64,000 nucleotides of DNA from an uncultured bacterium (GTDB lineage Bacteria > Patescibacteriota > Minisyncoccia > UBA6257 > GWB1-50-10), in assembly GCA_963713955.1 (NCBI GenBank), contig OY970216.1, forward strand, positions 442,252 to 506,251, given 5' to 3'. Shown in pieces: positions 4,981 through 59,812 of this stretch (its first letter is position 1; the number at the start of each line of letters is the position of its first letter). The translations under genes and the position numbers were made by a program. The notes under the pieces are model-generated. The model searched no databases, had not been told where the DNA came from, and was given only the letters and a program-made list of their open reading frames with translations.

Positions 4981-6087
4981 ATGAAAGATTATTATAAAAT
5001 TTTGGGCGTTTCGAAGGACGCTCCCGATGAAGAGATCAAGAAAGCATACCGGAAGCTGGCCCATGAATATCATCCCGACCGCCCGGGCGGCAACGAAGCC
5101 AGATTCAAGGAAATAAACGAGGCTTACCAAGTTCTTTCCAATAAAGAGAAGAAGGCCCAGTACGACAGATTCGGCGAGGTTCCCGAGGGTGCGGCAGCGG
5201 GGTATGGCGGTGCGTGGAATCCGTTCGGGGAAGGCGGCTTCTCGGCCGGTTTCGGCGGCTTTGGAGCTCAGAACGGGTTCGGCGTCGATTTCGAGGACAT
5301 ATTCGAAGGCATATTTGGCGGGTCCGGCGGACAGAGGAGAAGAACGTACACCCAAGGATCGGACGTCGAGCTGGAAATCCAAATTACCCTCGAGGAAGCT
5401 TTCCGAGGGGTCGCGAGAGACATAAAATTCAAGACAAACGTTCTCTGCGACGTATGCGGAGGGGTGGGGTACGACCGGAGCAAGGGGACCAAGAAATGTG
5501 CGACCTGCGTCGGCAAGGGCGAAGTGAAAGTTGAGCGGAAGACTTTTTTCGGAAATTTTTCCCAGGTGAAGTTGTGTCCCGATTGCGGGGGAAGGGGTGA
5601 AATACCCAACGTCGTCTGCAAGAATTGCAAAGGGGAGGGGAAAGTTTTTTCCTCGAAGTCCGTTGCGGTCGACATAGCGCCCGGCATCGAGGACGGTCAG
5701 ATAGTCAAGGTGAGCGGCGGCGGCGAAGCGGGGAGTAAGGGCGGTGCGAGCGGCGATCTCTACATCGTGATCAGGATCACTCCCCATCCCGTTTTCACGA
5801 GGAAAAAGAGCGACCTCTACGTGACGAAGGACATCGATCTCGCTGAGGCTCTCCTCGGGAAAGAGATCGGGATGCACGACGTCGGCGGCGAAAAGTTCGG
5901 CGTCGTGATACCGACCGGCTTTTCGTTGAACGAAAAGATGAAAATCGCGAAGAGGGGCATGCCCAAGTTTGGGATGGGCAGCCGGGGTGATCTTTATGTG
6001 ACCTTCAATCTGAAGCTTCCGAAACATCTCTCGCCGCGAGCCAAGAAGATGATCGAGGAACTCGACGACGAGCTCAAAAATCAATGA
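4981..6087 (+). CDS. dnaJ: molecular chaperone DnaJ
   Basis: J domain (HPD), G/F-rich region, four CxxCxGxG zinc-finger repeats. Confidence 0.95.
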
Positions 6088-7424: not shown

Positions 7425-7552
7425 CATGCCCCGTAGGACAACTTCGAGGGGCATTGAGAAAGAGGTATTTCAAAACTACGGGAGAATCAGATTTAGCTAA
7501 AAGATTAAAGATCTACTGCATTAAACAATAACTTGAAGTTGTACTACAGGGT

Positions 7553-7903
7553 ATGGAAAACATTTCGATAGACAAGTTCAGGGAGATCGATCTTCGAGTG
7601 GCGAAGATAACGGCTGCCGAACGGATTGAGGGAACCGACAAACTTTTGCGCCTGGAGCTGGATTTGGGCCCTTCGACTGACTCAGGGGAGGCGAGAGAGA
7701 AAAGGCAGATAGTTTCTGGCATAGCCGAGCATTATACACCGGAATCCCTCGTCGGCAGGGAGATAATCGTGGTATTTAATTTGGAATCCAGAACGCTGAA
7801 GGGGGTGGAGAGTAACGGAATGCTCCTGGCTGCGTCCGGCGAGGATTTCATTTCCTTGCTTCAGCCGGATAAGGAAGTCCCGCCCGGAAGCCGGATACGT
7901 TAA
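7553..7903 (+). CDS. tRNA-binding protein (CsaA/Trbp111-like EMAP/OB domain)
   Basis: KLLRLELDLG...QIVSGI...NGMLLA pattern of MetRS C-terminal-like tRNA-binding domain. Confidence 0.7.
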   Translation: MENISIDKFREIDLRVAKITAAERIEGTDKLLRLELDLGPSTDSGEAREKRQIVSGIAEHYTPESLVGREIIVVFNLESRTLKGVESNGMLLAASGEDFISLLQPDKEVPPGSRIR

Positions 7904-7914
7904 CTGGAAGTCTT

Positions 7915-8952
7915 TCAGTTATGCTGCAGTATTTGCAATCCGTACATTTGGACCTGGGATACGGTAGCGCTGTTACCGAGATAAACAAGGAAGTAGGGTG
8001 AACCCCACGCGTTGCTGGTTTTGAGATAGATATAAGAAAAATAAGAGGCATTGCCGGTATTAGTTGAAACATTCGTGATATTTGAATCCCTGTCGTGGAT
8101 TTGAAATTGGCCATTGGCTCTATAAAAGAAGTTTATTTTATAAACGTTGTTCAATACAAAGGGTTGGGTCATAGCTCCCGTGTCTGTCCAGCTCCTTTGC
8201 GACTGATTCCCGCCTGTTGCATCGAATTCCAAAACTTGCCCATTAAAGCCATTTCCTGGCGAGGTTAAATTCCAAGTGAGATAACTCGGTGTGGGGTTAT
8301 CCCAGCCGGTAAAAGATTGTGCTCTATAAGTTGAGTTAATCATCAAGTTATTACTCCACAGTAAAGATAAGCTGCTCCCCACTTCATACGTTGAATCATC
8401 AAGCCCTCCATCCGTCGACACGACATCATTGCTTCCCCCATAGCCATATCGTTGGGATTCCATAGAGGCGGTTAATTCGTATTTCCCTCCGCTGGTGGTG
8501 TAGGTATAATAGAGGCCGGTCGATGATGAGTTTATGGGATCTATCGGGAGTTTCGATAGGGGAGATCCTGATGAAATGAGCGTCAGATTCACCGGTATCC
8601 AACCTGTGCCGTCCACCTTGGTGGAAGAAGCAGCTGGAACGCAATGATAGCTCCAGCCTGAAGGGAGAATGGGAAGAGACCATGATCCGCAGGTGGAAGA
8701 TGAATCCGGGAGGGAAACGTAGGTAGTCGATGCGGTTCCCAAGGGTTGGGTGAATTGATCCGCCGTGAAGAGAGATAAGGCGCTATTCAGAGCTGCGAGG
8801 TCTGAGAGGCGGGTGGAATCCCTTCCTTGAGCTATGAGTTGGGTTGGGTTCAGGACGAGAACCACGGCAGTCGCCAGAACGGCGAGAATTGCAATTACAA
8901 CGAGGAGTTCAATAAGTGTAAAACTGGCTCTATCGCGGAGATTCATTATCAC
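7915..8952 (-). CDS. type IV pilin-like protein (class III signal peptide, FTLIELLVVIAILAVLA) with conserved N-terminal module and divergent beta-rich C-terminal domain; paralog 1 of 3
   Basis: prepilin N-methylation motif; ~75% aa identity to N-terminal 170 aa of 34703..35887 and 58197..59432. Confidence 0.85.
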   Translation of the reverse strand: MIMNLRDRASFTLIELLVVIAILAVLATAVVLVLNPTQLIAQGRDSTRLSDLAALNSALSLFTADQFTQPLGTASTTYVSLPDSSSTCGSWSLPILPSGWSYHCVPAASSTKVDGTGWIPVNLTLISSGSPLSKLPIDPINSSSTGLYYTYTTSGGKYELTASMESQRYGYGGSNDVVSTDGGLDDSTYEVGSSLSLLWSNNLMINSTYRAQSFTGWDNPTPSYLTWNLTSPGNGFNGQVLEFDATGGNQSQRSWTDTGAMTQPFVLNNVYKINFFYRANGQFQIHDRDSNITNVSTNTGNASYFSYIYLKTSNAWGSPYFLVYLGNSATVSQVQMYGLQILQHN

Positions 8953-9914: not shown

Positions 9915-9951
9915 GCCAAGCCCCGTACTACAAATTGTAGTACAAGGGCAA
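9915..9951. repeat. palindromic element ccccGTACTACAAaTTGTAGTACaaggg flanked by AAG (repeat family F3, copy 1)
   Basis: perfect 9-1-9 palindrome; second copy nested at 51594-51623. Confidence 0.6.
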
Positions 9952-10382
9952 GCGCTGCAACGCCTCACGCTTCCGACGTTCCTGCCTAAATATGCTTGAT
10001 TGAAAATAATCGCAAGGACTTTTCCCGGTCTTCGATTCGCTTCACGGCGTTGGAAGCGAAGCACTTGATCTGGTGACGGGGTTTTGACATCGTCCGGTGA
10101 TATGCTATCATTCTTCTCGGAACGTACCGTTCTTGAGATATTGAGGGAGTGATCATATGCGGCCGCTTTGGTTGCGACTTTGGTGTCTTAGGAGTGGCGC
10201 GAACCACGTCTAGACGTTTTACTAAGGCGGAGGTTGAATCGAGTTTCAAGAGCTTATCTCTAACTGATACTGCGAGTTGCTCTTTTTTTATTTATTACTC
10301 TCGTAGTAAAATCGGTGGACAGGTTGGTTTCTTGAAGCTTCTATTCGCCTCCGTTTTAGTTTTGTTGTAATATTAAATTGAT

Positions 10383-12043: not shown

Positions 12044-12121
12044 GGGCTCGGTAAGGCGAAAAAGTGGGTAAGACTTGGCCTAGCGGCCCGGAGCGCACAC
12101 TTTTTCGGCTTGCCGGGCCCC
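12044..12121. repeat. structured palindromic repeat, family F1 copy C (reverse orientation), between convergent genes
   Basis: ~78 bp; 10-bp stem CGAAAAAGTG/CACTTTTTCG plus inner hairpin; 3 copies in window. Confidence 0.7.
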
Positions 12122-22683: not shown

Positions 22684-22756
22684 ACCCGGCAAGCCGAAAA
22701 AGTGTGCGCTCCGGGGCGCTAGCCCAAGTCTTACCCACTTTTTCGCCTCACCGGGC
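22684..22756. repeat. structured palindromic repeat, family F1 copy A, between convergent genes
   Basis: cccggcaagccGAAAAAGTGtgcgctccgGGGCgctaGCCCaagtcttaccCACTTTTTCgcctcaccggg. Confidence 0.7.
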
Positions 22757-26824: not shown

Positions 26825-26845
26825 TATATGGGGGTCAGGCCACTC

Positions 26846-26903
26846 CTTCGCTAAAGCTTCGGACGGGCACAGCGATACTGCGCTGATGCTGGCTGCCGAG
26901 AGT
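26846..26903. repeat. 58-bp direct repeat (family F4 copy a): ctccttcgctaaagcttcggacgggcacagcgatactgcgctga..tggctgccgag, a candidate att site
   Basis: 54/58 identity to 29722-29779, which overlaps the 3' end of tRNA-Gln. Confidence 0.65.
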
Positions 26904-27063
26904 CTATTCTCACCGGTATAGATTTATCCGCTTAAACTCTCACTTTTTATTTTATCACTCCGGTTCGAATTCCGGGCGGGTCGTCAAAAAAACAGAATCA
27001 CGTCTCAAGATGAATGCCTACGCGTTTTCAGTAAGGATATCTATTTTTTGATATAATTAACTT

Positions 27064-27363: not shown

Positions 27364-29583
27364 ATGAATAAAAAAACTTTAAGCGTTCTCGTTATTATTT
27401 CCGGAATTTTAGTTTCTGGCGCAATAATCGGTTTTGCTAAGGCCCAAATAACAACGAATCAGTCGGTGCAAACTCAGCCACCGCAACCGCAGGAACAACA
27501 AACGCCAGAGAACATCCAATATCCCATAAAGGAATTGGGCAATTGCCAAAGCAAAGAAGATTGCAAGGTTTTTTGCGATGATTCCAAAAATTCCGATGCC
27601 TGTCTGGCTTTTGCCCAGCAAAATAATTTGATGAGTTCTGATGAAATAGTCACCGCCAAAAAATTTATGGATAACGGCATGGTCGGCCCGGGCGGCTGCA
27701 AGGGACAAACCGCATGCGATCAATACTGCGGCAACTCCGATCATTTGGAAGAATGCATCACTTTCGCCCAAAAAAATGGGATGATGTCAGCCCAGCAACT
27801 GCAAGATTCCCAAAAGGTTTTGGCGGCTATCAAGAACGGACTAAAACCTCCTGCTTGCGCCGGCCCTCAACAATGCAACGCATATTGCAGTAGCCCCGAC
27901 CATATGGAGGAGTGTATGACCTTTTCTTTGGCGGCTGGAATTGTACCGGACAATCAGAAAGCACAAATGCAAAAGACCTTGGATGCCATAAAACAAGGTG
28001 TAAAACCACCGGCTTGCCAACCAACCCCGCCGCCCGGTCAAATACAATCCAGCCAGTCCGGACAGAGTCTGCCGGCATGCGACACGTATTGCAGTAGCCC
28101 CGACCATATGGAGGAGTGTATGACCTTTTCTTTGGCGGCTGGTATGGTGTCGGACAATCAGAAGGCACAGGTACAGAAAACTTTGGATGCCATAAAGCAG
28201 GGCATCAAACCACCGGCTTGCCAACCTAACCCACCTGGCCAGTCCGGCAAACCCGGACAGCCTGGACAATCCAGTCAAACCAATCAATCCAGTCAATCTG
28301 GACAGGGACTGCAACCATGTGACCAATATTGCGCAGACCCCACTCACGTTGAAGAATGCGTGAAATTTTCCGTGGCAATGGGAAACATGACCGAACAGCA
28401 GGCGCAAACTGCCATAAAAAACGGCAACAAGGGTCCCGGCGGATGCATCGGTAAAGATGCCTGTGACGCTTTCTGTAATAATCCCGACAACCAAGAAACT
28501 TGTTTCAATTTTGCCAAAGACAACGGAATGGTCCCGCAAGACCAACTTCAACAAATGCAAGCTAGCCAGCAAAAGATGAAAGATTCTTTCAGTCAGATAC
28601 CTGCGGAGGTTCTAACTTGCATAACGAACTCGGCGGGTGCCGATGTAGTTGAGGAGATGAAAAGCGGTTCGTTTATACCCAGCCAAAGCGGTGAAGCCAT
28701 AAACCAGTGTTTTCGGAATTATGCTCCGCAGAACCAAGTACCGAATCAAAATCAGCCTGGACAGCCAGGGCAAGGCGGCCCGAATAATATGCCCGGAGAT
28801 TTAAGGGATTGCCTTCAATCTCAAGTTGGCGAAGATGGTCTGGCGAAAATTCAATCAGGAAATGTTGATGACCCCGTTTTAATGGAAAAAGCAAAAACTT
28901 GCTTTGATAAATACGGCCAGCCTGGTCAATCTAATCAACCGATGAATCCAGGACAGCCTAACCAGTCGGGACAATCCGGTTCAATGCAACCAATGATGCC
29001 CGGTGTTCAGTTTGCTTCGGGAACCGGTCCGAATGTGCCGTCATCTCCCCAGCAGGGAGTCATGTCGTCCGGAACCCAATTTGCTCCCCGTACAGGACCG
29101 AGTATGCCGCCGCCAAATTTTCAAAATAATTTTCCCGGCGGACCGGCAAGCGGCACAACTATTGTGGGACCAGGCGGTTGCAAGACTCCCCAAGAATGCG
29201 CGGCGTTCTGCGCTAGCAATCCTCAAATCTGCAACAATTTCCAGCCGCCATCTTCCGGGCAGCAGGGGCAAATGCAGCCGATGATGCCTCCGCAAGGAAT
29301 GAAGTCTGGCACAGAGTTCGCTTCCGGAACCAGTCCGAATATGCCACCGCAGGAAGGAATGCCCCTGAATCCGACAACGCCGCTCAATGAGACGAAATCT
29401 CCTCCCGGAGGAACGCAGCCTCAGTCCGGAACGCAAGAGATGATACCGCAAGGCGGAATGCAGCCATTCGTGTCTCCGCCTCCTCCGCCTGCGCCCGGAA
29501 CTACATCGACCACATCTGGCTTGCAGAACCAAGAATTCCTCGGGGCATTGATTGAATTGTTCCGGCCCGTATTCGGCCTCTAA
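27364..29583 (+). CDS. secreted cysteine-rich repeat protein: signal peptide, seven CX5CX3CX8C modules, Q/P-rich linkers, proline-rich C-terminus
   Basis: Sec signal MNKKTLSVLVIISGILVSGAIIGFAKAQ; modules such as GPGGCKGQTACDQYCGNSDHLEEC...FAQKNGMM; repeats 3 and 4 near-identical at DNA level. Confidence 0.75.
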   Translation: MNKKTLSVLVIISGILVSGAIIGFAKAQITTNQSVQTQPPQPQEQQTPENIQYPIKELGNCQSKEDCKVFCDDSKNSDACLAFAQQNNLMSSDEIVTAKKFMDNGMVGPGGCKGQTACDQYCGNSDHLEECITFAQKNGMMSAQQLQDSQKVLAAIKNGLKPPACAGPQQCNAYCSSPDHMEECMTFSLAAGIVPDNQKAQMQKTLDAIKQGVKPPACQPTPPPGQIQSSQSGQSLPACDTYCSSPDHMEECMTFSLAAGMVSDNQKAQVQKTLDAIKQGIKPPACQPNPPGQSGKPGQPGQSSQTNQSSQSGQGLQPCDQYCADPTHVEECVKFSVAMGNMTEQQAQTAIKNGNKGPGGCIGKDACDAFCNNPDNQETCFNFAKDNGMVPQDQLQQMQASQQKMKDSFSQIPAEVLTCITNSAGADVVEEMKSGSFIPSQSGEAINQCFRNYAPQNQVPNQNQPGQPGQGGPNNMPGDLRDCLQSQVGEDGLAKIQSGNVDDPVLMEKAKTCFDKYGQPGQSNQPMNPGQPNQSGQSGSMQPMMPGVQFASGTGPNVPSSPQQGVMSSGTQFAPRTGPSMPPPNFQNNFPGGPASGTTIVGPGGCKTPQECAAFCASNPQICNNFQPPSSGQQGQMQPMMPPQGMKSGTEFASGTSPNMPPQEGMPLNPTTPLNETKSPPGGTQPQSGTQEMIPQGGMQPFVSPPPPPAPGTTSTTSGLQNQEFLGALIELFRPVFGL

Positions 29584-29721
29584 ATATTTCTACTCGCGTT
29601 AGTTCGAATCCAGTCGGGTGAAAAGAGAACACCAATCCGAATTCTAAAAAGGTCACGGGTCTCGGATTAGAACTGATATTCAAAAAAGATAGAATTTAAG
29701 GCTCTCCGGTCTCGCTCCCTC

Positions 29722-29779
29722 CTTCGCTAAAGCTTCGGACGGGCACAGCGATACTGCGCTGACTGTGGCTGCCGGGCTT
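29722..29779. repeat. 58-bp direct repeat (family F4 copy b) overlapping the last 14 nt of tRNA-Gln
   Basis: see 26846-26903. Confidence 0.65.
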
Positions 29780-29839
29780 GGATTCGAACCAAGATACTGG
29801 GCTCCAAAGGCCCATGTCCTACCGTTAGACGACCCGGCA
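29766..29839 (-). tRNA. tRNA-Gln (anticodon TTG), CCA encoded
   Basis: manual fold: acceptor TGCCGGG/CCCGGCA, anticodon loop CTTTGGA, T-loop TTCGAAT. Confidence 0.8.
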
Positions 29840-30584: not shown

Positions 30585-30665
30585 GCTGACTCGGCAAGCC
30601 GAAAAAGTGTGCGCTCCGAGCCGCTAGGCCAAGTCTTACCCACTTTTTCGTCTCACCGAGTCAGC
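30585..30665. repeat. structured palindromic repeat, family F1 copy B, between convergent genes (overlaps dnaX stop)
   Basis: outer stem gctgactcgg/ccgagtcagc, inner stem AGCC-gcta-GGC covaries with copies A and C. Confidence 0.7.
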
Positions 30666-34702: not shown

Positions 34703-35887
34703 ATGTCCATCCATTCTCGTTCTTCCTTCACCCTGATCGAGCTCCTGGTAGTCATCGCCATCCTTGCCGTCCTTGCAACCGCCGTCGTCTTGGTCTTGAA
34801 TCCCGCCCAGCTCTTAGCTCAAGGAAGAGATTCAACCAGGCTCTCTGATCTCTCTGCCTTGAATAGTGCCCTCTCCCTCTTCCAGGCAGATCAATATACC
34901 CAGTCCTTAGGGACTCCAAATACCCTCTACGTATCAGTTCCCGATACCACATCCACCTGTGCCAATCTGGGACTGTCTTCTCCTCCTATAGGATGGGCCT
35001 ATCACTGTGTTCCAAGCTCTTCCTCAACAAGAGTAGACGGAACAGGCTGGATTCCCGTGAATCTTACCCTCCTATCATCAGGATCCCCTTTATCCAAGCT
35101 CCCGATAGACCCTACGAATACCACTAGTTCTGGACTCTACTATACCTACGTATCAGGAGGCTCCTATGCCTTATCCAGTGCCTTGGAATCACAGAAATAC
35201 CTTGTATCCACCGCATCCCAAGACCAAGGCTATGATCCTGGGAGGTATGAGATCGGTTCTGACCTATCCCTTATTGGAAGGAGTGAAGGATTAGTAGGAT
35301 GGTGGCCCCTGGATGGAGACCCGGGGGACAGGAGTGGGAACGGGAACAATGGGACGTGGTATGGATCCATGATCGGAGGTTCTTACTATACGGGAGGGAA
35401 GATCAACCAGGCTGGGAACTTTAATGGGACGGATGATTATGTGAATGTTCCAACGAGCCCGTTATTACATCCCTTGAGCTACGTTACGGTTTCTGCCTGG
35501 GTAAATATGACATCGTCAACTGGCCCATTTGATGGAATCACTACTGATAACGGCAACGACTACTATTTGCAAGCACAATGGCCCAAGTGGCGTTTCTATG
35601 TCATTAACACCTCTAGTGTATATAAAGATGTCTTTTCGATAAATAACATTACGACTGGGCAGTGGTATTTTTTAACCGGTGTCTACGACGGATCGAACGT
35701 TTCCCTATATGTCAATGGCGTTCTACAAGCACAAAATCCTCAAACAGGGAACATACAAAATTCGGCCGGAAACATAACAATATCAACGGGTGGACGTCAT
35801 TTTTATGGAACGATCGACGACGTCCGCATCTACAACCGAGCATTGTCCGCGGCAGAGATTCAGGCGATTTATAATGCACAAAAGTAG
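34703..35887 (+). CDS. type IV pilin-like protein with C-terminal LamG/concanavalin-A-like lectin domain; paralog 2 of 3 (ORF track start 34658; probable ATG 34703)
   Basis: FTLIELLVVIAILAVLA prepilin motif; C-terminus ...DDVRIYNRALSAAEIQAIYNAQK typical of LamG_3 jelly-roll domains. Confidence 0.85.
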   Translation: MSIHSRSSFTLIELLVVIAILAVLATAVVLVLNPAQLLAQGRDSTRLSDLSALNSALSLFQADQYTQSLGTPNTLYVSVPDTTSTCANLGLSSPPIGWAYHCVPSSSSTRVDGTGWIPVNLTLLSSGSPLSKLPIDPTNTTSSGLYYTYVSGGSYALSSALESQKYLVSTASQDQGYDPGRYEIGSDLSLIGRSEGLVGWWPLDGDPGDRSGNGNNGTWYGSMIGGSYYTGGKINQAGNFNGTDDYVNVPTSPLLHPLSYVTVSAWVNMTSSTGPFDGITTDNGNDYYLQAQWPKWRFYVINTSSVYKDVFSINNITTGQWYFLTGVYDGSNVSLYVNGVLQAQNPQTGNIQNSAGNITISTGGRHFYGTIDDVRIYNRALSAAEIQAIYNAQK

Positions 35888-35900
35888 GGGATAAACCAGT

Positions 35901-47745: not shown

Positions 47746-49464
47746 ATGGGGGTAATGTCGAAAGATACTGATCTTATCAAAGAGAAGGTTGATATAGTCG
47801 ATTTCCTCAAGCAATACCTGACTCTTACTCCGACCGGCAAGAATTTCAAAGCGCTCTGCCCGTTCCATCAGGAAAAAACGCCTTCTTTTTTCATTTCTCC
47901 GGAACGGAAAATCTGGCATTGCTTCGGGTGCGGACTCGGGGGTGACGTCATCAAGTTCGCGATGCTCTACGAGCATATCGAGTTCCCCGAAGCCTTGAAG
48001 CTTCTCGCCGAGAAAGCCGGCCTCCAGATACAAACCATGAGTCCCTCTGAGCAGCGGGAATTTGGGATACTGTATGACATAAACGCCGCCGCGGCTAAGT
48101 TCTATCGGGATGCGCTCATGAAAAACGGGAGAGTGATAGACTACCTGAAAAACCGCGGGTTGAAAAGCGAAACCATCGATGAATTCGATCTCGGATACGC
48201 CCCGGGAGGGGAGGAACTCACGAAGTTCCTTATGAAGAACGGATATGCCGTGAACGATATCGTAAGGGCGGGGTTAGCGCAGAAAAACGTAAGAGGTTTG
48301 TACAAGGATAAGTTTTATGAACGAATCATGTTCCCGATAGCGAACCAAATAGGGAAGATTGTGGCTTTCACGGGAAGAACCGTCCCGGACGCTTCCGGCA
48401 ACGATCCGAAGGATGCTCCAAAGTATCTGAATTCCCCGGAAACGATCATCTTCAACAAATCGAAAATACTTTACGGCTTTGACAAATCCAAGCAGTTCGT
48501 AAGCGAGGCAAAAACCGTCGTCATCGTCGAAGGCCAGATGGATCTCCTTATGGTGTGGCAATCAGGCGTGAAAAACGCGGTTGCGGTTTCCGGCACGGGG
48601 CTCACCGAAGAACACTTGCTCCGGCTCCGGAGATTCGCCGACACGGTCATGGTCAGCTTCGACAAGGACGAGGCGGGGATCAAGGCGCTCGAAAGAAGTT
48701 TGGAACACTTCCATAATTTCGATTTCCATATCAAAGTCATCGACCTCGGCGGCTTCAAGGATCCGGCCGACGCGTGCAAGGCGAATCCCGATTTCATGAA
48801 AACAGCCTTGAGCTGGGCGAAACCTGCCCTTTCATATCTCATGAACGCTTATTTTTCAGACACCTCATACCAGGGCGGCGATATCCCGGTCAAAAAGAGA
48901 ATCTTACGGCACGTATTGGCTCAAATAAACACCGTGAAGAGTGCCGTTGAAAGAGGCATCTGGATCAGGGAAGCGTCGGAGCTTTCGGGCATACCGGAAA
49001 ACGATCTGAGGCAAGAACTGAGAAACATGGACTCCGGAGAACCGGAAAGTCTCGGTTCGAATTTCTCGAGCGAAACCGAAAAATCCGACCAGAGGGAAGA
49101 AATAGCAAGAAAGCTTACGGTCATCGCTTTGACAAGGGAAGACTTCCTTGATACATTGAAAGGCGAAATAGCCCTCCTGCCGGATAATTTCAGGAAAATC
49201 GTAGAAGGAGGAAAAGATGCCGAGGATGCGGCTCTCTTGGAACTTGAATCTTCCTACCTCACGAGTTCCCGCGACGAAAAGACTATAAAGAAGGAGTTCG
49301 ACGACCTTCTCAAAAAGTTGAAAATACTCTCCCTCAAGGAATCGAAATCTTCCCTCAAGAAGGCCCTCAGGGAAGCCGAGAACGGGGGAAGCGAAGAAAA
49401 GGTATCGGAGATCCTCGGCAAATTCTCGGATGAAAGCAAAAAACTAAACGACCTCTCCCGATGA
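47746..49464 (+). CDS. dnaG: DNA primase
   Basis: zinc ribbon [17 protein letters not shown] domain. Confidence 0.95.
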
Positions 49465-50660
49465 CCAAATCCAAAACCAAAAAATCTCAAAAAAAGAACA
49501 AGCGACCTCTCCGGAAGGTCGCTTCGAAAAAACCCAAAAAGACGGCAAAGCAAGCTATCAGGAAGGAAAAGAAGATCATCGTTCCGCCCGAGTACGAAGA
49601 AGCACTGGAAGAACTCGTGAAAAGGGGGAGAGGAAGAGAGTTCCTGACGGATGCGGAAGTTCTGAACTATTTCCCGGACATAGAAAAGAACCTCCCGTTC
49701 CTTGAGAGGGTTTACGCGCGGCTCGAAAAAGAGGGGATTAAAATCAAGGAATCCGGGCCGGTCATAAAAAATCTTAACCTCGAGGAAGTTTCCGCCAACG
49801 AGCTCAAGGAAGCAACCAAAGTCGAAACCGACTTGCCGGACGCCGTTCAGATGTACCTCAAGGAAATCGGGAAGACCGCGCTTCTCACGTCCGCCGAAGA
49901 AAAAGAACTCGCTAAACGCATCGAAAAAGGCGACGAATCCGCCAGGAAAAGACTGATACAAGCCAATTTGAGACTCGTAGTTTCCATCGCAAAGCGATAT
50001 GCCAATCGGAGCCAGCGCTTGAGCATTCTCGATCTCATTCAAGAGGGGAACATCGGTCTTTCCCGCGCCGTCGACAAATTCGACTACACGAAAGGATTCA
50101 AATTTTCCACGTACGCCACGTGGTGGATCCGCCAAGCCGTGACGAGAGCTCTGGCCGACTATTCAAGGACCATACGAATACCGGTCCACATGGTTGAAAC
50201 CATAACCAAATACACCCAGACGAAAAGGCAGCTCATGCAAGAATTGGGCCGGGAACCCCTGCCTGAAGAGATCGCTTCCGAAATGGGGATGGACGTCAAG
50301 AAAATCCACTATATCCAGAAAATTTCGCAGGAGGTGATGTCTCTCGAAGCGCCGATCGGGGACGGCGAGGATGATCTCACGCTTTCCGATTTCATCAAAG
50401 ACGAACAAAGTTTGAGCCCCGACGAGATGGCGAACCAGGCACTCTTGAAAGACCAGATACGTGAAATTCTGGCTGATTTGACTGAACGCGAGCAAAGAAT
50501 ACTCGCCATGCGATTCGGTCTCGACGACAACATTCCTCATACGCTCGAGGAGGTCGGGAAAGAATTCGGCGTAACCCGGGAACGCATCCGGCAAATCGAA
50601 GCCAAGGCTCTGGATCGAATCCGGAACCACGAAAAATCAAAGAAACTGGAAGGGTACTGA
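49461..50660 (+). CDS. rpoD: RNA polymerase sigma-70 factor RpoD
   Basis: regions 1.2-4.2; region 2 includes YATWWIRQA. Confidence 0.95.
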
Positions 50661-50670
50661 AAATGCTCGC

Positions 50671-50740
50671 CAGGTACTCCTTCCTCAGGCAGTCTCCGGG
50701 GCGACGCCCAAGTCTTAGCCTTCGGAAGGAGTGCCTGCCT
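50671..50740. repeat. structured repeat family F2 copy 1 (caggtactccttcctcaggcagtctccggggcgacgcccaagtcttagccttcggaaggagtgcctg)
   Basis: 3 copies (50671, 51547, 59745 rc); shares core ctccgGGGC...GCCCaagtctta with F1. Confidence 0.65.
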
Positions 50741-50830
50741 TGCGGCAGACAAACCGGACTCCACACGGTTTTATATCAGAAGCAAAATTTCTCTGTTGTA
50801 AAAAAGAATTTACTGTGATATAATTGAAAC

Positions 50831-50905
50831 ATTGCTTTGGCCTAATAGAGGTCAAGTTTTTACGGGGTCCTACTGAAAACACCAGAGGACCCTTCGCATT
50901 TTTTG
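50831..50905 (+). ncRNA. candidate small RNA: promoter (-35 TTGTAA 50796, -10 TATAAT 50819) to intrinsic terminator (gggtcct...aggaccc + ATTTTTTG)
   Basis: promoter and terminator ~75 nt apart with no ORF. Confidence 0.3.
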
Positions 50906-50976
50906 TCGGGCTGCCGAGATCATATCTGCTTAACCTCGCACGACTCGGGACGAATATATAAAACCTCTAACTTCTG

Positions 50977-51047
50977 TCGGAGTGGGGAGAATCGAACTCC
51001 CGCTACATGCACCCCATGCATGCGTACTGCCACTATACGACACTCCG
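50977..51047 (-). tRNA. tRNA-Pro (anticodon GGG)
   Basis: manual fold: acceptor CGGAGTG/CACTCCG, anticodon loop ATGGGGT, T-loop TTCGATT. Confidence 0.75.
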
Positions 51048-51136
51048 AGCGCTGTTACATTTACTCCGTAGTATCGCGAAGCGATTACTGCAGGGCTACA
51101 GCCCGAATAGTAGAAGTATAAGCTATTCGATTGAAA

Positions 51137-51161
51137 TTAAAAACACCCTATCGGGAGGGTG
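51137..51161 (-). terminator. rho-independent terminator downstream of rpmB
   Basis: caccctcccgatagggtg hairpin followed by TTTTT on minus strand. Confidence 0.55.
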
Positions 51162-51354
51162 CTTTCTTTTTTCCTTTACTGATCGTCTTAAGACACCTGA
51201 CGCAGATCAGAACCCTTTTTCCCGGAATAATGTTCCTTACGAGTTTCAAGTTCGCCTTCTTCTTTTGCGAAGAGGTAGGGTTGTAATGGCTCCGGAGCAT
51301 CACCCGAGTATTCCCCGCCGTATACGATTTCCCGCAAATGTAGCACTGCCGCAT
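51148..51354 (-). CDS. rpmB: 50S ribosomal protein L28
   Basis: CYICGKSYTAGNTR..SH and RVLICVRCLKTISKGK align to the L28 family. Confidence 0.8.
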   Translation of the reverse strand: MRQCYICGKSYTAGNTRVMLRSHYNPTSSQKKKANLKLVRNIIPGKRVLICVRCLKTISKGKKKAPSR

Positions 51355-51546
51355 GCCCTGTAGTACAACTTCGAATTTACTTGTTCGAATGGTAAACTTT
51401 CATTTCTCGACCGTAAATTTCTCCATGATGAGATACATCTCTAGTTTCTGAGCAATTATATGCCCGAGACACTATCGAAGTTGTCCTACGGGGCATGGTC
51501 TGTAGATTATCAAAACAACATACTTATGTCAATAAATTTGCGCTCA

Positions 51547-51649
51547 CCTGGTACTCCTGCTCAGGCAGTCTCCGGGGCGACGTCCAAGCCCCGTACTACA
51601 ACTTCGTTGTAGTGCAGGGCAAGTCTTAGCCTTCGCAGAAGTACCAGGC
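51547..51649. repeat. repeat family F2 copy 2 carrying a nested F3 palindrome (51594-51623) inserted at CAAG
   Basis: identical to F2 copies 1 and 3 apart from the 30-bp insertion ccccgtactacaacttcgttgtagtgcaggg. Confidence 0.65.
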
Positions 51650-51686
51650 TCGCCCTTCAAGAAGAAGTGCTTTAGTCTTCTTCGTT

Positions 51687-52358
51687 TTATCCGACAGTGG
51701 TCTGCTTGTACGTTTTTGCGTTGAAGTCGAATTGATAAAAATTAGGACTATCGGGAGAGCCTACCTCGAGGATAATGCTCGTCGTCCCCGGATCAATCTT
51801 GAAATTCACGGCGCCGTCAACTGAACTTTGGGGCGGCATGGCCTTGAAAGCTCCGACGACGTTGTCGGCAACGGTATTGCTCCCCGTCGGATTGAATATT
51901 TGAATGAGGTTTCCCATGTCGACCGCGCTGTAGCTTGAAGCGGAATCGGTGAAAACCTTGACTGCAACTGCAAGGGTGCCATCCGTCATTTCCGACACTT
52001 TGCTCACGAGTATCGTGAGATCTGTTTGGGGTTCGAGATCAGCGCTGGAACTCGCGTTGAACAAGATGTTCGACGCTATGGAGATCGCCGCACTGGTCGC
52101 TTGGCTTCCCGTTGTGGTGCTTCCCGTTTGCGTTCCGTTTGCCGAGCTTCCGGTCGTAGTCGGCTCGCTCCCGGAATTCCCCGTCGTCGTCACGACGCTC
52201 AAGGGAGAAGACGTGCTCCCGGGAAGAACGTTCTGCGTTCCATTGTTTCCAATAATATTCTCGATCCCGCTTATCTTATTGAAAAGAAAATAAAAACCGA
52301 GGAGCATTACGACAATGACGACCGCGAAGAGCAGGTAAATGTTTCTTATGTTTCTCAT
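51687..52358 (-). CDS. secreted/membrane-anchored Thr/Ser-rich protein of unknown function
   Basis: N-terminal TM/signal anchor, T/S/G-rich low-complexity segment. Confidence 0.5.
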   Translation of the reverse strand: MRNIRNIYLLFAVVIVVMLLGFYFLFNKISGIENIIGNNGTQNVLPGSTSSPLSVVTTTGNSGSEPTTTGSSANGTQTGSTTTGSQATSAAISIASNILFNASSSADLEPQTDLTILVSKVSEMTDGTLAVAVKVFTDSASSYSAVDMGNLIQIFNPTGSNTVADNVVGAFKAMPPQSSVDGAVNFKIDPGTTSIILEVGSPDSPNFYQFDFNAKTYKQTTVG

Positions 52359-53540: not shown

Positions 53541-54007
53541 GGAGAAAAGGATTCAAAAAAAGAGAACACGCCGCCGACAGCGCTTATGCGAGAGTTGACA
53601 TGGGCAGATTCATTAACTATTTGATGGAGGGCGGCAAAAAAACGGTAGCCGAGAAGGTTTTTTATGGCGCACTTCGCGAAATAGAAAAAACGACCAAGGA
53701 AGATCCCGTGAAGATTTTTGAGAAAGCCGTTGAGAATGCAACTCCTCTCCTCGAGGTAACCTCAAAAAGGATAGGTGGCGCCAACTACCAGATTCCGCGA
53801 GAGGTGAGGAATGAAAGAAAATTTTTCCTTGCGACGCACTGGATCATAGACGCGGCAAGGAAGAAAAAAGGCAAACCGATGGCTGAGAAGCTGGCGGAAG
53901 AAATCGTGGCCGCCTCCAAGAATGAGGGGGCAGCTATAAAAAAGAAACAAGACACGCACCGGATGGCAGAGGCGAACCGCGCGTTCGCAAGCTACTTGAG
54001 GGGTTAA
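53537..54007 (+). CDS. rpsG: 30S ribosomal protein S7 (start ATG 53537 overlaps rpsL stop)
   Basis: S7 family block ...[16 protein letters not shown]... Confidence 0.9.
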
Positions 54008-54008
54008 T

Positions 54009-54138
54009 CCCTCACCCTTCGAGGATAAGCAATTATCCGGAAGCGGAAGGAGAATTAATCATGAAAATGAAAAGTTTATCAAACAACAGTCGCTCAGATT
54101 ATAAGGATCACTTTTTGATGATCCTCGAAGGGTGAGGG
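54009..54138 (+). promoter_or_regulatory. 18-bp perfect inverted repeat (ccctcacccttcgaggat / atcctcgaagggtgaggg) enclosing a 24-codon mini-ORF (54061..54135, own GGAGG RBS); right arm contains the fusA Shine-Dalgarno
   Basis: read directly; mini-ORF stop TGA lies 3 nt before the fusA ATG. Confidence 0.6.
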
Positions 54139-56244
54139 ATGCCGAGACAATACCCACTGGAAAAAGTAAGGGATATCGGCATTATTGCCCACATCGATGC
54201 GGGCAAGACCACGACGTCGGAGCGCGTCCTTTTTTACACCGGCGTTTCGCACAAAATAGGCGAGGTGCACGAAGGTGACACGATAATGGATTGGATGGAA
54301 CAAGAACGGGAGCGGGGCATAACGATAACTTCCGCGGCGACGACCTGCTTTTGGATCCCCACGTACGCCAAGGGAAATAAAGCGGACGAACACCGGATAA
54401 ATCTCATAGACACCCCTGGCCACATAGACTTCACCGTTGAAGTCAAAAGATCTCTCAGGGTTCTTGACGGAGCCGTTGTCGTCTTCGACGGCGTCGCCGG
54501 CGTAGAACCTCAGTCGGAAACAAACTGGCATTACGCCGACGAATATAAAGTTCCGAGAATCTGCTTCATAAACAAACTGGATCGCATGGGAGCCAGCTTC
54601 GATTTCAGCTTCAACTCCATAATGGAGCGCCTGACGCCGAACGCCATAGCCATACAACTACCCCTAGGCCTTGAATCGGCTTTTGAAGGAGTGATCGATT
54701 TGTTGAACATGAAAGCCATAAGATTCGAAGGCGAGCACGGAGAAAAAGTAATCGAAGGCGAGATTCCGGAAAACATGCGGGAAGAAGCCAAGAAAAAAAG
54801 GCATGAATTGATAGAAAAAATAGTAGAGAAAGACGACGGACTCATGGCACTTTATTTGGAGGGGAAAGAACCGGACATTGCTTCGCTTAAAAGGACACTC
54901 CGAACCGAAACGATAGCCAACCGCCTCGTGCCGGTTTTTTGCGGGTCGGCCTTGCAGAATAAGGGCGTTCAGTTGATCTTGGACGCAGTGGTCGATTACC
55001 TCCCGTCCCCGATCGACATGCCACCCATAAAAGGAATAAATCCCTCGACTGGCATGGAAGAAGAACGGCATCCTCTTGACGACGAACCGCTCGCCGGCCT
55101 CGCTTTCAAAATTGCTGCCGATCCTTTCGTCGGATCTCTCACGTACTTCAGGGTTTATGCCGGAACGATAAAACGAGGAAGCTATGTCCTGAACGCGACG
55201 AAAAACTCACAGGAAAGGATCGGGAGGTTGGTCAGAATGCACGCTAATCACCGGGAAGAGGTAGAGGAGTTGTACGCGGGCGATTTGGGCGCCATCGTCG
55301 GCCTCAAGAACACGACGACGGGCGATAGCTTGACCGATCCGGAACATCCGATCATACTCGAAAAAATAATTTTCCCAGAGCCGGTCATTTCAGTACGAAT
55401 CGAACCAAAGACGAAAGCTGATCAAGAAAAAATGGGCATCGCCTTACACCGCCTCTCGGAAGAAGACCCTACCTTCAAGGTTTCCGGCGACGAAGAAACC
55501 GGCGAAACCATTATTGCCGGCATGGGAGAACTCCACCTGGAAATCATAGTCGACCGGATGAAAAGGGAATTCGGCGTCGAGGCAAGCGTCGGCCGTCCAC
55601 AGGTTGCCTACAAAGAAACAATAAAAGGAGAGGCGGAGGCGGAGGGGAAATACATACGGCAATCGGGCGGACGTGGCCAATACGGACATGTCTGGCTCAA
55701 AGCCGAGGCACTGGAGAGGGGAGAGGGCTTTGAATTTGTCGATTCGATAAAGGGCGGCGTGATCCCGCAAGAATTTATTCCTGCCGTCGAAAAGGGGGTA
55801 CGGGAAGCTCTCGAGAGAGGAATCCTCGCGGGGTATCCCGTGATCGATCTCAAAGTGACTCTCTTCGACGGTTCGTACCACGAAGTCGATTCGTCGGAAT
55901 TCGCTTTCAAGATAGCCGGCTCAATGGCTCTCCAAGAAGCCGCAAAAAGAGCGAAGCTCGTTCTCCTCGAACCGATCATGAAGGTTCAAGTCATCGTTCC
56001 ACCCGATTTCTTGGGCGACGTGACGGGCGATTTGAGTTCAAAGAGGGGAAAAATCAAAGCGATGGGCGAGCGCGGCACGGTGCGGGTGATAGACGCAAAC
56101 GTCCCCCTAGCCGAAATGTTCGGCTACTCGACGAGTTTGAGATCGATGACTCAGGGAAGGGGATCTTTCAACATGGAATTCTCGCACTATGAAGAAATAC
56201 CCCAAAGCGTAGCGCAAACCATAATAGAAGGAAGAAAAAAATGA
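54139..56244 (+). CDS. fusA: elongation factor G
   Basis: GTPase G1-G5 motifs, EF-G domains II-V. Confidence 0.97.
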
Positions 56245-58166: not shown

Positions 58167-58196
58167 TTTCTCTTGTCTTGTAGTATAATTAACCTA

Positions 58197-59432
58197 ATGA
58201 ATCTCAGAGGTAGAGAATCCTTCACCCTGATCGAGCTCCTGGTCGTGATTGCGATCCTTGCCGTCCTTGCGGTGGCCGTCGTCTTGGTCTTGAACCCTGC
58301 CCAGCTCCTGGCTCAAGGAAGAGATTCGACTCGTTTGTCTGATCTTTCCGCTCTGAATAGCGCCCTCTCCCTCTTCCAGGCAGATCAATATACCCAGTCC
58401 TTAGGGACTCCGAATACCCTCTACATATCAGTCCCTGACAATGCCTCCTCCTCCTGTGGTTCCTTAGGCCTCCCAACTCCTCCCCCAGGATGGGCCTATC
58501 ACTGTGTTCCCCAAGCTTCTTCCACGAAGGTAGATGGTTCCGGCTGGATTCCCGTGAATCTGACCCAAATCTCATCAGGAAGTCCCTTATCCAAGCTTCC
58601 GATAGACCCTGCCAATTCTTCCTCCTCAGGACTCTACTATACCTATACGCTCTCCAGCAACGGGAAGTATGAATTGACCTCAGAATTGGAGTCCCAGAAA
58701 TACGTTCCTACCATGGCCCAGGATGGAGGTTCCTATGACGGTCTCTACCAGATTGGTTCCCAGGTGGATATCACTCCTCCCTTCCGGAGCTCTGGACTCA
58801 TGGGGTATTGGCCGTTCGACGAGGGGAGTGGGACCACGGCATACAATTCCTCGGGGAATAATAACAATGGGAGCTGGAGCGGGGCGACGCCGTATTATAC
58901 AGCCAGCGCGAAGGTGGGAGCGTACGCTGGGAATTTCAATGGGAGCAATGATATCGTTACCTTACCGACAGGCAGCACTCAATTAGAGACACCCAGCATA
59001 ACTGTTTCTGCTTGGATTAATTTTACGGCCGCTACGAGTAGTAACTATGATATCTTTCAGAAGAAGCGTCCCTATGGCAATTACCGCGGCTACGAACTTT
59101 ATATAAACCTCAGCAATCAAGCACAATTTGATATCGGAAATGGCTCAGCGTATATTACGGGTCCGTCATCCTCAGTTTCTAAGAATACATGGACTTTTAT
59201 TGTAGGAAGCTATGATGGCAATAACATCAACATATATGTCAATGGAACCCTAAAATCTACTGTAGCGAATAATACCGGTATTAGTTATTCTGGGGGTAGT
59301 AGTCCGGGGACATATATAGGCACTGACAGTGGTAATGCTAATTACTTTACCGGCTTCATGGACGACGTCCGCATCTACAACAGGGCATTATCCGCCGCGG
59401 AGGTCCAGGCGATCTATAATGCACAGAAATAG
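58197..59432 (+). CDS. type IV pilin-like protein with C-terminal LamG-like lectin domain; paralog 3 of 3, located inside the S10 operon (ORF track TTG 58173; probable ATG 58197)
   Basis: ~88% nt identity to paralog 2 over the first ~500 bp and the last ~70 bp; divergent middle. Confidence 0.85.
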   Translation: MNLRGRESFTLIELLVVIAILAVLAVAVVLVLNPAQLLAQGRDSTRLSDLSALNSALSLFQADQYTQSLGTPNTLYISVPDNASSSCGSLGLPTPPPGWAYHCVPQASSTKVDGSGWIPVNLTQISSGSPLSKLPIDPANSSSSGLYYTYTLSSNGKYELTSELESQKYVPTMAQDGGSYDGLYQIGSQVDITPPFRSSGLMGYWPFDEGSGTTAYNSSGNNNNGSWSGATPYYTASAKVGAYAGNFNGSNDIVTLPTGSTQLETPSITVSAWINFTAATSSNYDIFQKKRPYGNYRGYELYINLSNQAQFDIGNGSAYITGPSSSVSKNTWTFIVGSYDGNNINIYVNGTLKSTVANNTGISYSGGSSPGTYIGTDSGNANYFTGFMDDVRIYNRALSAAEVQAIYNAQK

Positions 59433-59744
59433 AAGGTAAAGCACCAAATCCCAAGCACCAAATCCCAAATAATACCCCAATGTTCGAATTTCAAATTTAA
59501 GTATTTATTTGTTATTTGGAATTTGGATCTTGGAATTTCACTGCTTCGGTTAACCGAAGCGGTCTCATTAATGAAACCACCTCTACAAACATTAGGCTCG
59601 AGCTTAATCTTTGTAAAACGAGAGCTTACAATATTCCTACTTCCAAAGAGAAGCAGCCCAAGGTTTCCTTGAACGTTTTTCCGGAAGGCGTTTGAGTCCC
59701 AGTCGTTTATTTCTTTTAGGAGGTGGGATGATTCCAAAGAGCGA

Positions 59745-59812
59745 GGCAGGTACTCCTTCCGAAGGCTAAGACTTGGGCGTCGCCCCGGAGACTGCCTGAG
59801 GAAGGAGTACCT
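59745..59812. repeat. repeat family F2 copy 3 (reverse orientation) upstream of rplC promoter
   Basis: near-identical to 50671-50740. Confidence 0.65.

Follow-up and report, generated by a model that had tools for sequence, protein, structure and literature searches.

In the genome of an uncultured bacterium of the Patescibacteriota, one copy of a small hairpin-forming repeat, here called F2, is interrupted by a 31-nt palindrome, F3. The locus lies in a stretch of 64,000 nt (GenBank assembly GCA_963713955.1, contig OY970216.1, positions 442,252 to 506,251 of the forward strand) that we refer to as the window and in whose coordinates positions are given unless another sequence is named. It raises the question of what this palindrome is and how it came to lie inside another repeat. 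We are largely confident that F3 is a non-autonomous derivative, reduced to its ends, of a family of very small transposable elements of Patescibacteria (candidate phyla radiation, CPR) that carry one GIY-YIG gene. For this family we observe directly that inverted repeats bound the copies and 4-bp duplications flank them, that internal deletions form a series, that copies have spread to unrelated loci, that filled sites have empty counterparts and that the nuclease motif is intact and conserved.

The interrupted hairpin and its relatives in the window

Direct reading and alignment show that the interrupted F2 copy (51547-51649) matches the two intact copies of the window from end to end, except for 35 additional nt after CAAG, which consist of the palindrome CCCCGTACTACAACTTCGTTGTAGTGCAGGG and a second CAAG (Table 1). 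The intact copies, which have the sequence GGGGCGACGCCCAAGTCTTAGCC in common and are 96% identical to each other over 78 nt, read ...GGGGCGACGCCCAAG followed immediately by TCTTAGCC..., whereas the interrupted copy reads ...GGGGCGACGTCCAAG, then CCCCGTACTACAACTTCGTTGTAGTGCAGGG and CAAG, and then TCTTAGCC.... An earlier reading, made from the sequence alone, had located the interruption at this very point and had attributed it to an insertion with duplication of CAAG, as opposed to an ancestral long form from which the shorter copies arose by deletion and which would show no consistent duplication. Alignment and flanks agree with the insertion: the intact form is the general one, the insert is found independently elsewhere, and the family to which it belongs is flanked by 4-bp direct repeats of varied sequence (YATG, CAAG and, three times in locus L056, TTTA), as in a duplication of the target-site type. 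Syntenic relatives of the window have no F2 copy at the position of 51547, and the empty-site evidence for F3 in F2 therefore consists of the two paralogous intact copies. In the predicted fold of the interrupted copy, the F2 stem is kept and F3 is added as a side hairpin.

The arm motif of F3, CCCCGTACTACAA, occurs nine times in the window when up to two mismatches are allowed, compared with 0.63 expected occurrences, and none of 100 shuffles reached nine. Four copies of the family are present, two of them internally deleted (7429-7551 and 51356-51493) and two consisting of the ends only (9921-9948 and 51589-51619). The sequence-only reading had recognized a free-standing F3 copy with AAG flanks between parA and parB, and this copy indeed carries the full CAAG on both sides. 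It starts 18 nt past the parA stop codon, and ParA and ParB were both confirmed with Pfam. A half-site-like pair that had been noticed after xseB turned out to be the deleted element at 7429-7551, which retains an MPRRTTS start and the C-terminal remnant RKRYFKTTGESDLAKRLKIYCIKQ of a nuclease (tblastn remnant at 7457-7528) where the full-length nuclease shows RREGYLKTTGGLRFIVKRLKVYYLNK. The copy at 51356-51493 is homologous to the others, had gone unmentioned before and lies 54 nt from the interrupted F2 element; its flanking CATG at 51352-51355 contains the ATG of rpmB (complement of 51352-51354). These two deleted copies have opposite orientations and agree almost perfectly over 23-26 nt at each end, with interiors that are essentially unrelated.

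Table 1. Features of the window that bear on the F3 insertion and on the F1/F2 hairpins.
Feature	Position	Strand	Basis or remark
Deleted element (123 bp) at ATG 7553 of a tRNA-binding-domain gene	7429..7551	+	Flanks CATG 7425-7428 and TATG 7552-7555; Pfam tRNA_bind
Second probable ends-only element (CCCCGTACTACAA-A-TTGTAGTACAAGGG)	9921..9948	.	Between parA and parB; CAAG at 9917-9920 and 9949-9952
F1 hairpin	12047..12117	-	Same core
F1 hairpin, same apex as F2 and different arms	22685..22755	+	Alignment
F1 hairpin, mini-stem with compensatory G-C to C-G change	30590..30660	+	Alignment
Intact F2 hairpin, 10 nt past the stop of rpoD at 49461-50660	50671..50738	+	Empty-site reference for the insertion
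Internally deleted element (138 bp, miniature inverted-repeat type) at the rpmB start codon	51356..51493	-	Flanks CATG 51494-51497 and CATG 51352-51355; Pfam Ribosomal_L28
Interrupted F2 hairpin, 5' half: outer arm and CTCCGGGGCGACGTCCAAG	51548..51588	+	Sequence and alignment; mini-stem C>T relative to the intact copies
Target duplication, left CAAG	51585..51588	+	Single CAAG here in intact F2
F3, probable ends-only miniature element	51589..51619	.	Left repeat CCCCGTACTACAACTTCG joined directly to truncated right repeat TTGTAGTGCAGGG; arms equal the terminal repeats of GIY-YIG elements
Target duplication, right CAAG	51620..51623	+	Sequence and alignment
Interrupted F2 hairpin, 3' half: TCTTAGCC and outer arm	51624..51649	+	Outer arm differs from that of the copy at 50671 by compensatory changes
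Intact F2 hairpin, second empty-site reference	59745..59812	-	Alignment

The parent element and its insertion sites

Scanning one genome per species in GTDB (185,579 genomes) with the exact pattern GCCCYGTASKACAACTTCG yielded 54 loci, 17 of which are real copies: an inverted partner lies no more than 340 bp away and the flank is again (C/T)ATG. These copies stem from Saccharibacteria (L026, L033, L037), Patescibacteria (L028), Harrisonbacteria (L041), two unclassified metagenome-assembled genomes (MAGs; L006, L018) and one MAG with ten copies. About 37 of the 54 matches were discarded as chance, as they lie inside coding sequence of Actinomycetota and other phyla and have neither a partner repeat nor an ATG flank. 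A scan of viral contigs with the repeat gave one match in unrelated sequence, without ATG flank or partner, which we also took as chance. The ten-copy MAG (CAZNKO01 contigs, L008-L054; a binchicken co-assembly bin) is an 'uncultured Gammaproteobacteria' by label only and all other hosts belong to the CPR; a host range beyond the CPR is uncertain.

The full element measures 290-340 bp and consists of two terminal inverted repeats (TIRs) of about 19 bp (CCCYGTAsKACAACTTCGA) that enclose a single GIY-YIG gene of 86-106 aa; TIRs are present at both ends of more than 30 copies. Two full-length copies came from the GTDB scan, one in Saccharibacteria (L033) and one in Harrisonbacteria (L041), with proteins of 94 and 95 aa read from the flanking ATG (MPRSTTS...KRLKVYYLNK and MPRTTTS...YYQSKL; Pfam PF01541 GIY-YIG, E=6e-16 and 3e-12). 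A protein search returned 72 close homologues from Sungbacteria, Patescibacteria and Dojkabacteria that are named only 'GIY-YIG nuclease family protein', many of them starting with MP(S/R)xTTS. Through protein homology, without use of the DNA pattern, four more full-length copies were obtained (L056, L066, L067, L194); in all four, the repeats at the two ends match, and a called host gene (PrgI-like, def, gatC or MFS) follows after 8-22 nt. A coding partner with the same repeats thus exists as six full-length copies in other genomes. In all six, which represent different lineages, the nuclease open reading frame (ORF) fits precisely between the repeats, in places with the repeats serving as coding sequence. 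The repeat itself encodes MP(R/S)xTTS. Read as its reverse complement, the left repeat gives TCG AAG TTG TAG (SKL-stop); in one variant, the N- and C-terminal ends of the protein are therefore both encoded by repeat sequence.

TIR variants differ between elements and co-vary within one (CCCAGTAGTAC, CCCAGTACTAC, CCCCGTGCTAC, CCCGGTGTTAC), and private variants match at both ends in L067 (GTGCTAC) and L194 (GGTGTTAC). A 100-bp deleted copy in L067 (at 19475), 9 kb from the full copy (at 10004), carries the same private GTGCTAC variant. The ten copies in the CAZNKO01 MAG are 126-129 bp long and sit at ten different genes; in the alignment their homology begins and ends exactly at TATG and their flanks are unrelated. 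Four of the ten contain a relic ORF of 40 aa that keeps both the N-terminus (MPRTTTS) and the C-terminus (...KRLQTFFKSKL), which identifies the 126-129-bp copies as internal deletions of the nuclease gene. Deleted copies of this kind are frequent, and the series runs through miniature inverted-repeat transposable elements (MITEs) of 100-200 bp down to repeat-to-repeat palindromes such as F3. The arms of F3 equal the TIRs of the GIY-YIG elements, and the earlier view of the insert as a derivative of a mobile element is upheld by this identity. No pair of repeats is more than 340 bp apart in any of the fetched loci (about 1.45 Mb), and no transposase of a recognised class (DDE, HUH, serine, tyrosine, Cas1) was found between the repeats, where the only ORF is the PF01541 GIY-YIG gene.

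The catalytic motif columns Y, Y-G, R, H and E show no variation among 30 homologues (Y13, Y24, G26, R34, H38, E58). Proteins of 86-106 aa comprise the GIY-YIG domain only, with no separate DNA-binding domain. The nearest PDB sequences found with phmmer are UPF0213 1zg2 (1.4e-7), UPF0213 1ywl (4.5e-5) and SLX1 7wme (0.017), and by these sequence matches we assign the element protein to the stand-alone Slx1-like/UPF0213 GIY-YIG proteins. A more distant homologue, P0069 (L195, 55% identity), has no repeats and lies away from a start codon, so the mobile clade forms a subset of the stand-alone Slx1/UPF0213-type proteins. Eight homologues (P0010, P0013, P0014, P0017, P0022, P0051, P0055, P0059) start with MPSNTTS and end with ...RRFLGLRL...G(A/S)GS instead of ...KRL.YY.SKL, a sequence difference that points to a second lineage whose right end differs. 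Separately, an element of 151 bp in L066 (18538-18688) has other inverted repeats (CCCCGCACTAACTTTGCAGG...) and may belong to a related family.

Of the 20 insertion sites that were tabulated, all have ATG at the end of both flanks; position -4 is T in 15, C in four and A in one of them, and purines are enriched from -5 to -11. The right-hand ATG opens a co-oriented host ORF (LeuRS, RuvB, L5, IF2, GAPDH, TrxB, def, gatC, L28, the tRNA-binding protein and others). Four further ATG-flanked copies sit on the host start codon of L3 (L037), an S41 peptidase (L066 9565), a gene at L067 19576 and MFS (L194). Overall, the start-codon position holds for 24 of the 24 ATG-flanked copies checked, at least 20 unrelated host genes are hit, and independent gene calls put the host start on the right-hand ATG in all four protein-derived loci. 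Since only about 24 of the roughly 106 non-coding YATG sites in the window are start codons, this association is far from random. Most copies have TATG or CATG as 4-bp flanking repeats, the two ends-only copies of the window have CAAG and one locus has TTTA, which roughly corresponds to YAWR; YATG flanks are identical at all four bases in 15 of 20 sites. The TTTA locus (L056 1297-1447) holds two short elements in tandem (71 and about 80 bp) with diverged repeats, in the order TTTA, element, TTTA, element, TTTA. It lies 6 nt upstream of the start of the EPSP synthase gene, not on an ATG, and the same TTTA target was used repeatedly. The duplication is real and does not belong to the element as a fixed part. 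The flanking ATG is in frame with the element ORF in five of the six full copies, and an MPxxTTS start is found in 19 of 30 predicted homologues. At its other end, the element ORF terminates within the right repeat or shortly ahead of it, with 8-22 nt left up to the restored host ATG.

Empty sites were read in relatives of the window. RpoD relatives are labelled Patescibacteria group, Jorgensenbacteria, Minisyncoccia or Paceibacterota, and four syntenic relatives (L189, L191, L192, L193) have an RpoD that is 89-94% identical and the same dnaG-rpoD...M50 peptidase-S12-S7-EF-G neighbourhood. Ahead of rpmB, the sequence of L189 is TTTTGATAATCTACAAGCTATGCGTCAG where the window has TTTTGATAATCTACAGACCATG, 138 bp and CATGCGGCAG, and the site is also without element in L191, L192 and L193. 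This empty site was read by eye from the conserved TTTTGATAATCTACA motif; a MAFFT alignment placed no gap at the element. Filled and empty states can hence be paired at the rpmB start (window versus the four relatives) and at F2 (interrupted versus intact).

Movement of the element and competing explanations

We tentatively propose that the GIY-YIG protein of about 95 aa is itself the transposase, that the insertion mechanism, and not selection alone, directs the element to start codons, and that the element borrows the ribosome-binding site and ATG of its host gene and passes translation on; we rate this proposal as having somewhat less than an even chance of being correct. Insertion duplicates 4 bp of the target, and the left copy of the duplicated ATG would open the element's own frame with use of the host ribosome-binding site. 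The protein would cut and move the element and could act in trans on the four defective copies of the window. Translation of the host gene might proceed by termination-reinitiation coupling, which we consider because the element ORF stops so shortly before the host ATG. Alternatively, pairing of the two repeats in the mRNA might keep the host gene expressed, with translation once the repeat-repeat stem, which is predicted to be very stable (-37.5 and -52.8 kcal/mol), has been opened or bridged. At the F2 locus, a short copy, or a longer one that collapsed afterwards, most probably entered between CCAAG and TCTTA and duplicated CAAG. Palindromes delete readily. The copy appears to have entered at a YAWR site within the 3' internal loop of the hairpin apex, which is single-stranded, and the hit was probably an off-target event at this site.

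Several points weigh against the proposal. To our knowledge no GIY-YIG enzyme acts as a transposase, and the catalytic domain of about 95 aa has no obvious DNA-binding module for recognising the repeats. No autonomous copy was found by tblastn within the 64-kb window. The pattern of the GTDB scan began with G, which biases the flanks of the copies derived from it towards NNNG; the four protein-derived loci are not affected. In five of the 20 sites the left and right 4-bp flanks disagree at their first base, and a 3-bp duplication combined with a preference for Y is therefore conceivable as well. CAAG flanks both ends-only copies of the window and could be a tetranucleotide that travels with the element instead of being duplicated. 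Finally, the flanking ATG is out of frame in the full-length copy of L194.

It is unlikely, although it deserves to be weighed, that the short copies are MITEs whose movement depends on a conventional transposase supplied in trans, such as a DDE enzyme that makes 4-bp duplications (IS5, IS701 or IS1380 types), with the GIY-YIG gene as a passenger or coloniser. TIRs together with a short duplication of fixed length are a hallmark of DDE transposition, and the lack of known GIY-YIG transposases speaks for such an explanation as well. DDE genes do occur in some host genomes, namely an IS1595-type gene at L067 18364-19149 and rve fragments in L057, but these nearby genes are not bounded by the repeats. 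The short distance between all repeat pairs recovered by the exact-repeat scan, the GIY-YIG gene as the sole gene enclosed by them and the precise fit of its ORF in every full-length copy likewise argue against a transposase acting from elsewhere.

Far less probable is a model along the lines of the sequence-only reading, in which REP/PATE-like hairpins (REP, repetitive extragenic palindromic) prefer each other as targets and are moved as single strands by IS200/IS605 TnpA or by RAYT. F3 is a hairpin-forming palindrome with GTAG/GTAC, it sits in the single-stranded loop of another hairpin, and each sub-lineage has one flanking tetranucleotide (TATG ten times, CAAG twice, TTTA three times), which recalls guide-directed target choice. 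However, the ends of the element are inverted copies of each other and not two distinct subterminal hairpins, direct repeats of varying sequence flank it, and its usual target is a start codon. The expected association with TnpA did not materialise, since the elements have true TIRs and the only gene ever found between them is the GIY-YIG nuclease; no Y1/HUH gene is associated with the elements, a statement about the elements themselves, as the ORFs of the window were scanned for TnpA/RAYT only in part. Nor was any F3-type repeat present in about 0.8 Mb around some 120 listed metagenome copies of F1/F2, all retrieved with an intact-core pattern that is blind to interrupted copies. The idea of modular palindromes that target one another finds no support here; F3 and F1/F2 are two unrelated families. 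We give still less credence to F3 as a functional palindromic protein-binding site (an operator or parS-like) whose presence in F2 is ancestral or convergent: a perfect 9+9 palindrome with a stable fold does lie between parA and parB, but its arms have the same sequence as the termini of a mobile family with coding full-length members, 4-bp direct repeats flank it, the insert is absent from both intact F2 copies of the window and from all listed metagenome copies of F1/F2 (in a scan that required an intact core), and F3 is unlike what we take to be the canonical parS.

If the nuclease moves the element, it would represent a new class of transposase for transposons with TIRs and target-site duplications, and at about 300 bp the element may be the smallest autonomous transposon known. 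Its target would be set by gene function, the initiation codon, and not by a long sequence. Full-text searches of the literature retrieved no description of GIY-YIG elements with inverted repeats, of transposons that target start codons or of the F1/F2 hairpin, and the family of GIY-YIG mini-transposons is apparently undescribed. Should the nuclease indeed be the mover, three questions would become accessible to experiment: by what means a bare GIY-YIG domain recognises DNA ends and joins them again, how a hairpin-forming insert of 130-340 bp on the start codon is tolerated by essential genes (L28, L3, L5, LeuRS, IF2, RuvB), and how mobile DNA can survive in genomes as extremely compact as those of the CPR. 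On the practical side, the elements distort the prediction of gene starts in CPR genomes and create spurious ORFs with MPxTTS peptides, and a compact insertion module that seeks start codons is of possible interest as a tool.

The F1/F2 hairpins, further repeats and known systems

F1 and F2 share a core, as the sequence-only reading had seen: CTCCGG(G/C)CG-loop-G(C/G)CCAAGTCTTA is present in six copies in the window, three of F1 and three of F2. A metagenome scan with the exact, intact core found it in at least 120 stretches (L069-L188), mostly from groundwater and sediment assemblies rich in CPR. Among the listed copies an invariant apex of about 27 nt (CTCCGGSCG-loop-GSCCAAGTCTTA) sits on long, near-perfect stems whose sequence differs completely from copy to copy. 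The mini-stem pair is C-G in 69 and G-C in 51 of them and never broken, and each of 12 aligned stem pairs below the apex shows 20-61 double compensatory changes. RNAfold predicts a median of about 30 bp around the apex, and the arms of the listed copies are 32% identical. Both orientations relative to genes occur, at a rough sense:antisense ratio of 38:29 that depends on crude ORF calls (44 of 124 copies fell 'inside' ORFs). Within the window, F1/F2 are duplicated as whole hairpins, and a covariance model of F1/F2 matches only the five intact copies there. Rfam at gathering score reports four tRNAs only in the whole window, leaving F1/F2 and F3 without a match, and at E<=10 it reports for 50600-51750 a tRNA and otherwise noise-level matches only. 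A role as intrinsic terminator was rejected: a T-run follows two of 119 listed copies, and A/T tracts occur in either polarity. The border motif CTCGC was also discarded as a target duplication, being present in only 16 of 119 listed copies. L191 and L192, whose RpoD is identical, can be compared at about 5200-5300 just after the rpoD stop: L192 has an F2-type hairpin there, and its place is taken in L191, as in L193, by a canonical terminator (AAAACGTCC-loop-GGACGTTTTT) that follows an AT-rich repeat, aatttttaatttacaattttcaattttt, which is found again elsewhere in L193. F1/F2 is a separate, widespread and unexplained hairpin family of the CPR that is unrelated to F3, and it constitutes a second abundant CPR element whose function is unexplained.

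The window contains further repeats. A direct repeat of 72 nt (26843-26914 and 29719-29790, 86% identical) overlaps with its second copy the 3' end of tRNA-Gln (29766-29839, minus strand) and brackets 2.8 kb with a 96-aa ORF and a 739-aa ORF that has internal tandem repeats of 159 nt (27873-28235). This looks like a pair of att-type repeats of something integrated at tRNA-Gln, and no integrase was seen. Between two plus-strand genes, an inverted repeat of 26 nt (54007-54032 and 54115-54140, 92% complementary, spacing 82 nt) may be another MITE-like element of a different family. Three paralogous pilin-like genes (8498-8948, minus; 34724-35148 and 58195-58648, plus) have an N-terminal methylation motif and a Laminin_G_3 domain and share stretches of 200-440 nt that are 70-86% identical; two of them also have a C-terminal ...DDVRIYNRALSAAEIQAIYNAQK segment (35813-35898 and 59358-59443).

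Among known systems, bacterial MITEs derived from insertion sequences by internal deletion, such as Correia elements, Nezha and RPEs, resemble the elements described here in their TIRs, short target duplication, many short non-coding copies and link to a coding parent by internal deletion. Bacterial MITEs can be co-transcribed with neighbouring genes. In contrast to them, the parent here is about 300 bp long and encodes a GIY-YIG nuclease instead of a DDE transposase, copies sit on start codons, and the most extreme derivative is two joined repeats of 27-31 nt. PATEs of IS200/IS605 and the REP/RAYT system are likewise small, intergenic, hairpin-forming repeats, and a lineage-specific flanking tetranucleotide is a possible further likeness. 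These systems have no TIRs and no target duplication and depend on Y1 HUH enzymes, whereas the elements here have TIRs and duplications and contain no Y1 HUH gene. For the SDR (small dispersed repeat) elements of heterocyst-forming cyanobacteria we know of no coding parent. Elhai et al. are said to have described them in 2008 as mobile units of 20-30 nt that are nested inside other small repeats; as with F3, these are tiny nested repeats, but sequence, host phylum and target all differ.

GIY-YIG homing endonucleases, free-standing or encoded by introns (I-TevI, the T4 Seg proteins; PMC1564403), offer a likeness in that a selfish element with a GIY-YIG nuclease as its sole gene lies between or at the start of conserved genes. 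Homing enzymes have DNA-binding modules, address one cognate allele and are not accompanied by inverted repeats or duplications, in contrast to the bare domain of about 90 aa and the wide range of unrelated target genes found here; the element protein shares the catalytic GIY-YIG motifs, and a separate DNA-binding domain and a single cognate allele are both absent. Stand-alone Slx1-like/UPF0213 (YhbQ) proteins (1zg2, 1ywl; SLX1 7wme) are the best sequence matches and agree in size and in the motif set of a minimal GIY-YIG domain, the description given for the Slx-1 cluster, to which 1ywl is assigned (PMC1564403). They have been treated as cellular repair or structure-specific nucleases and not been linked to repeats. 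Insertions that encode GIY-YIG proteins but are not introns have been reported in rRNA genes of the CPR, where they tend to sit at stem-loops (PMC11270868). They share the host group with the elements described here, and although terminal repeats, duplication, MITE derivatives and start-codon targeting do not figure in that report, these rRNA-gene insertions may be the same elements.

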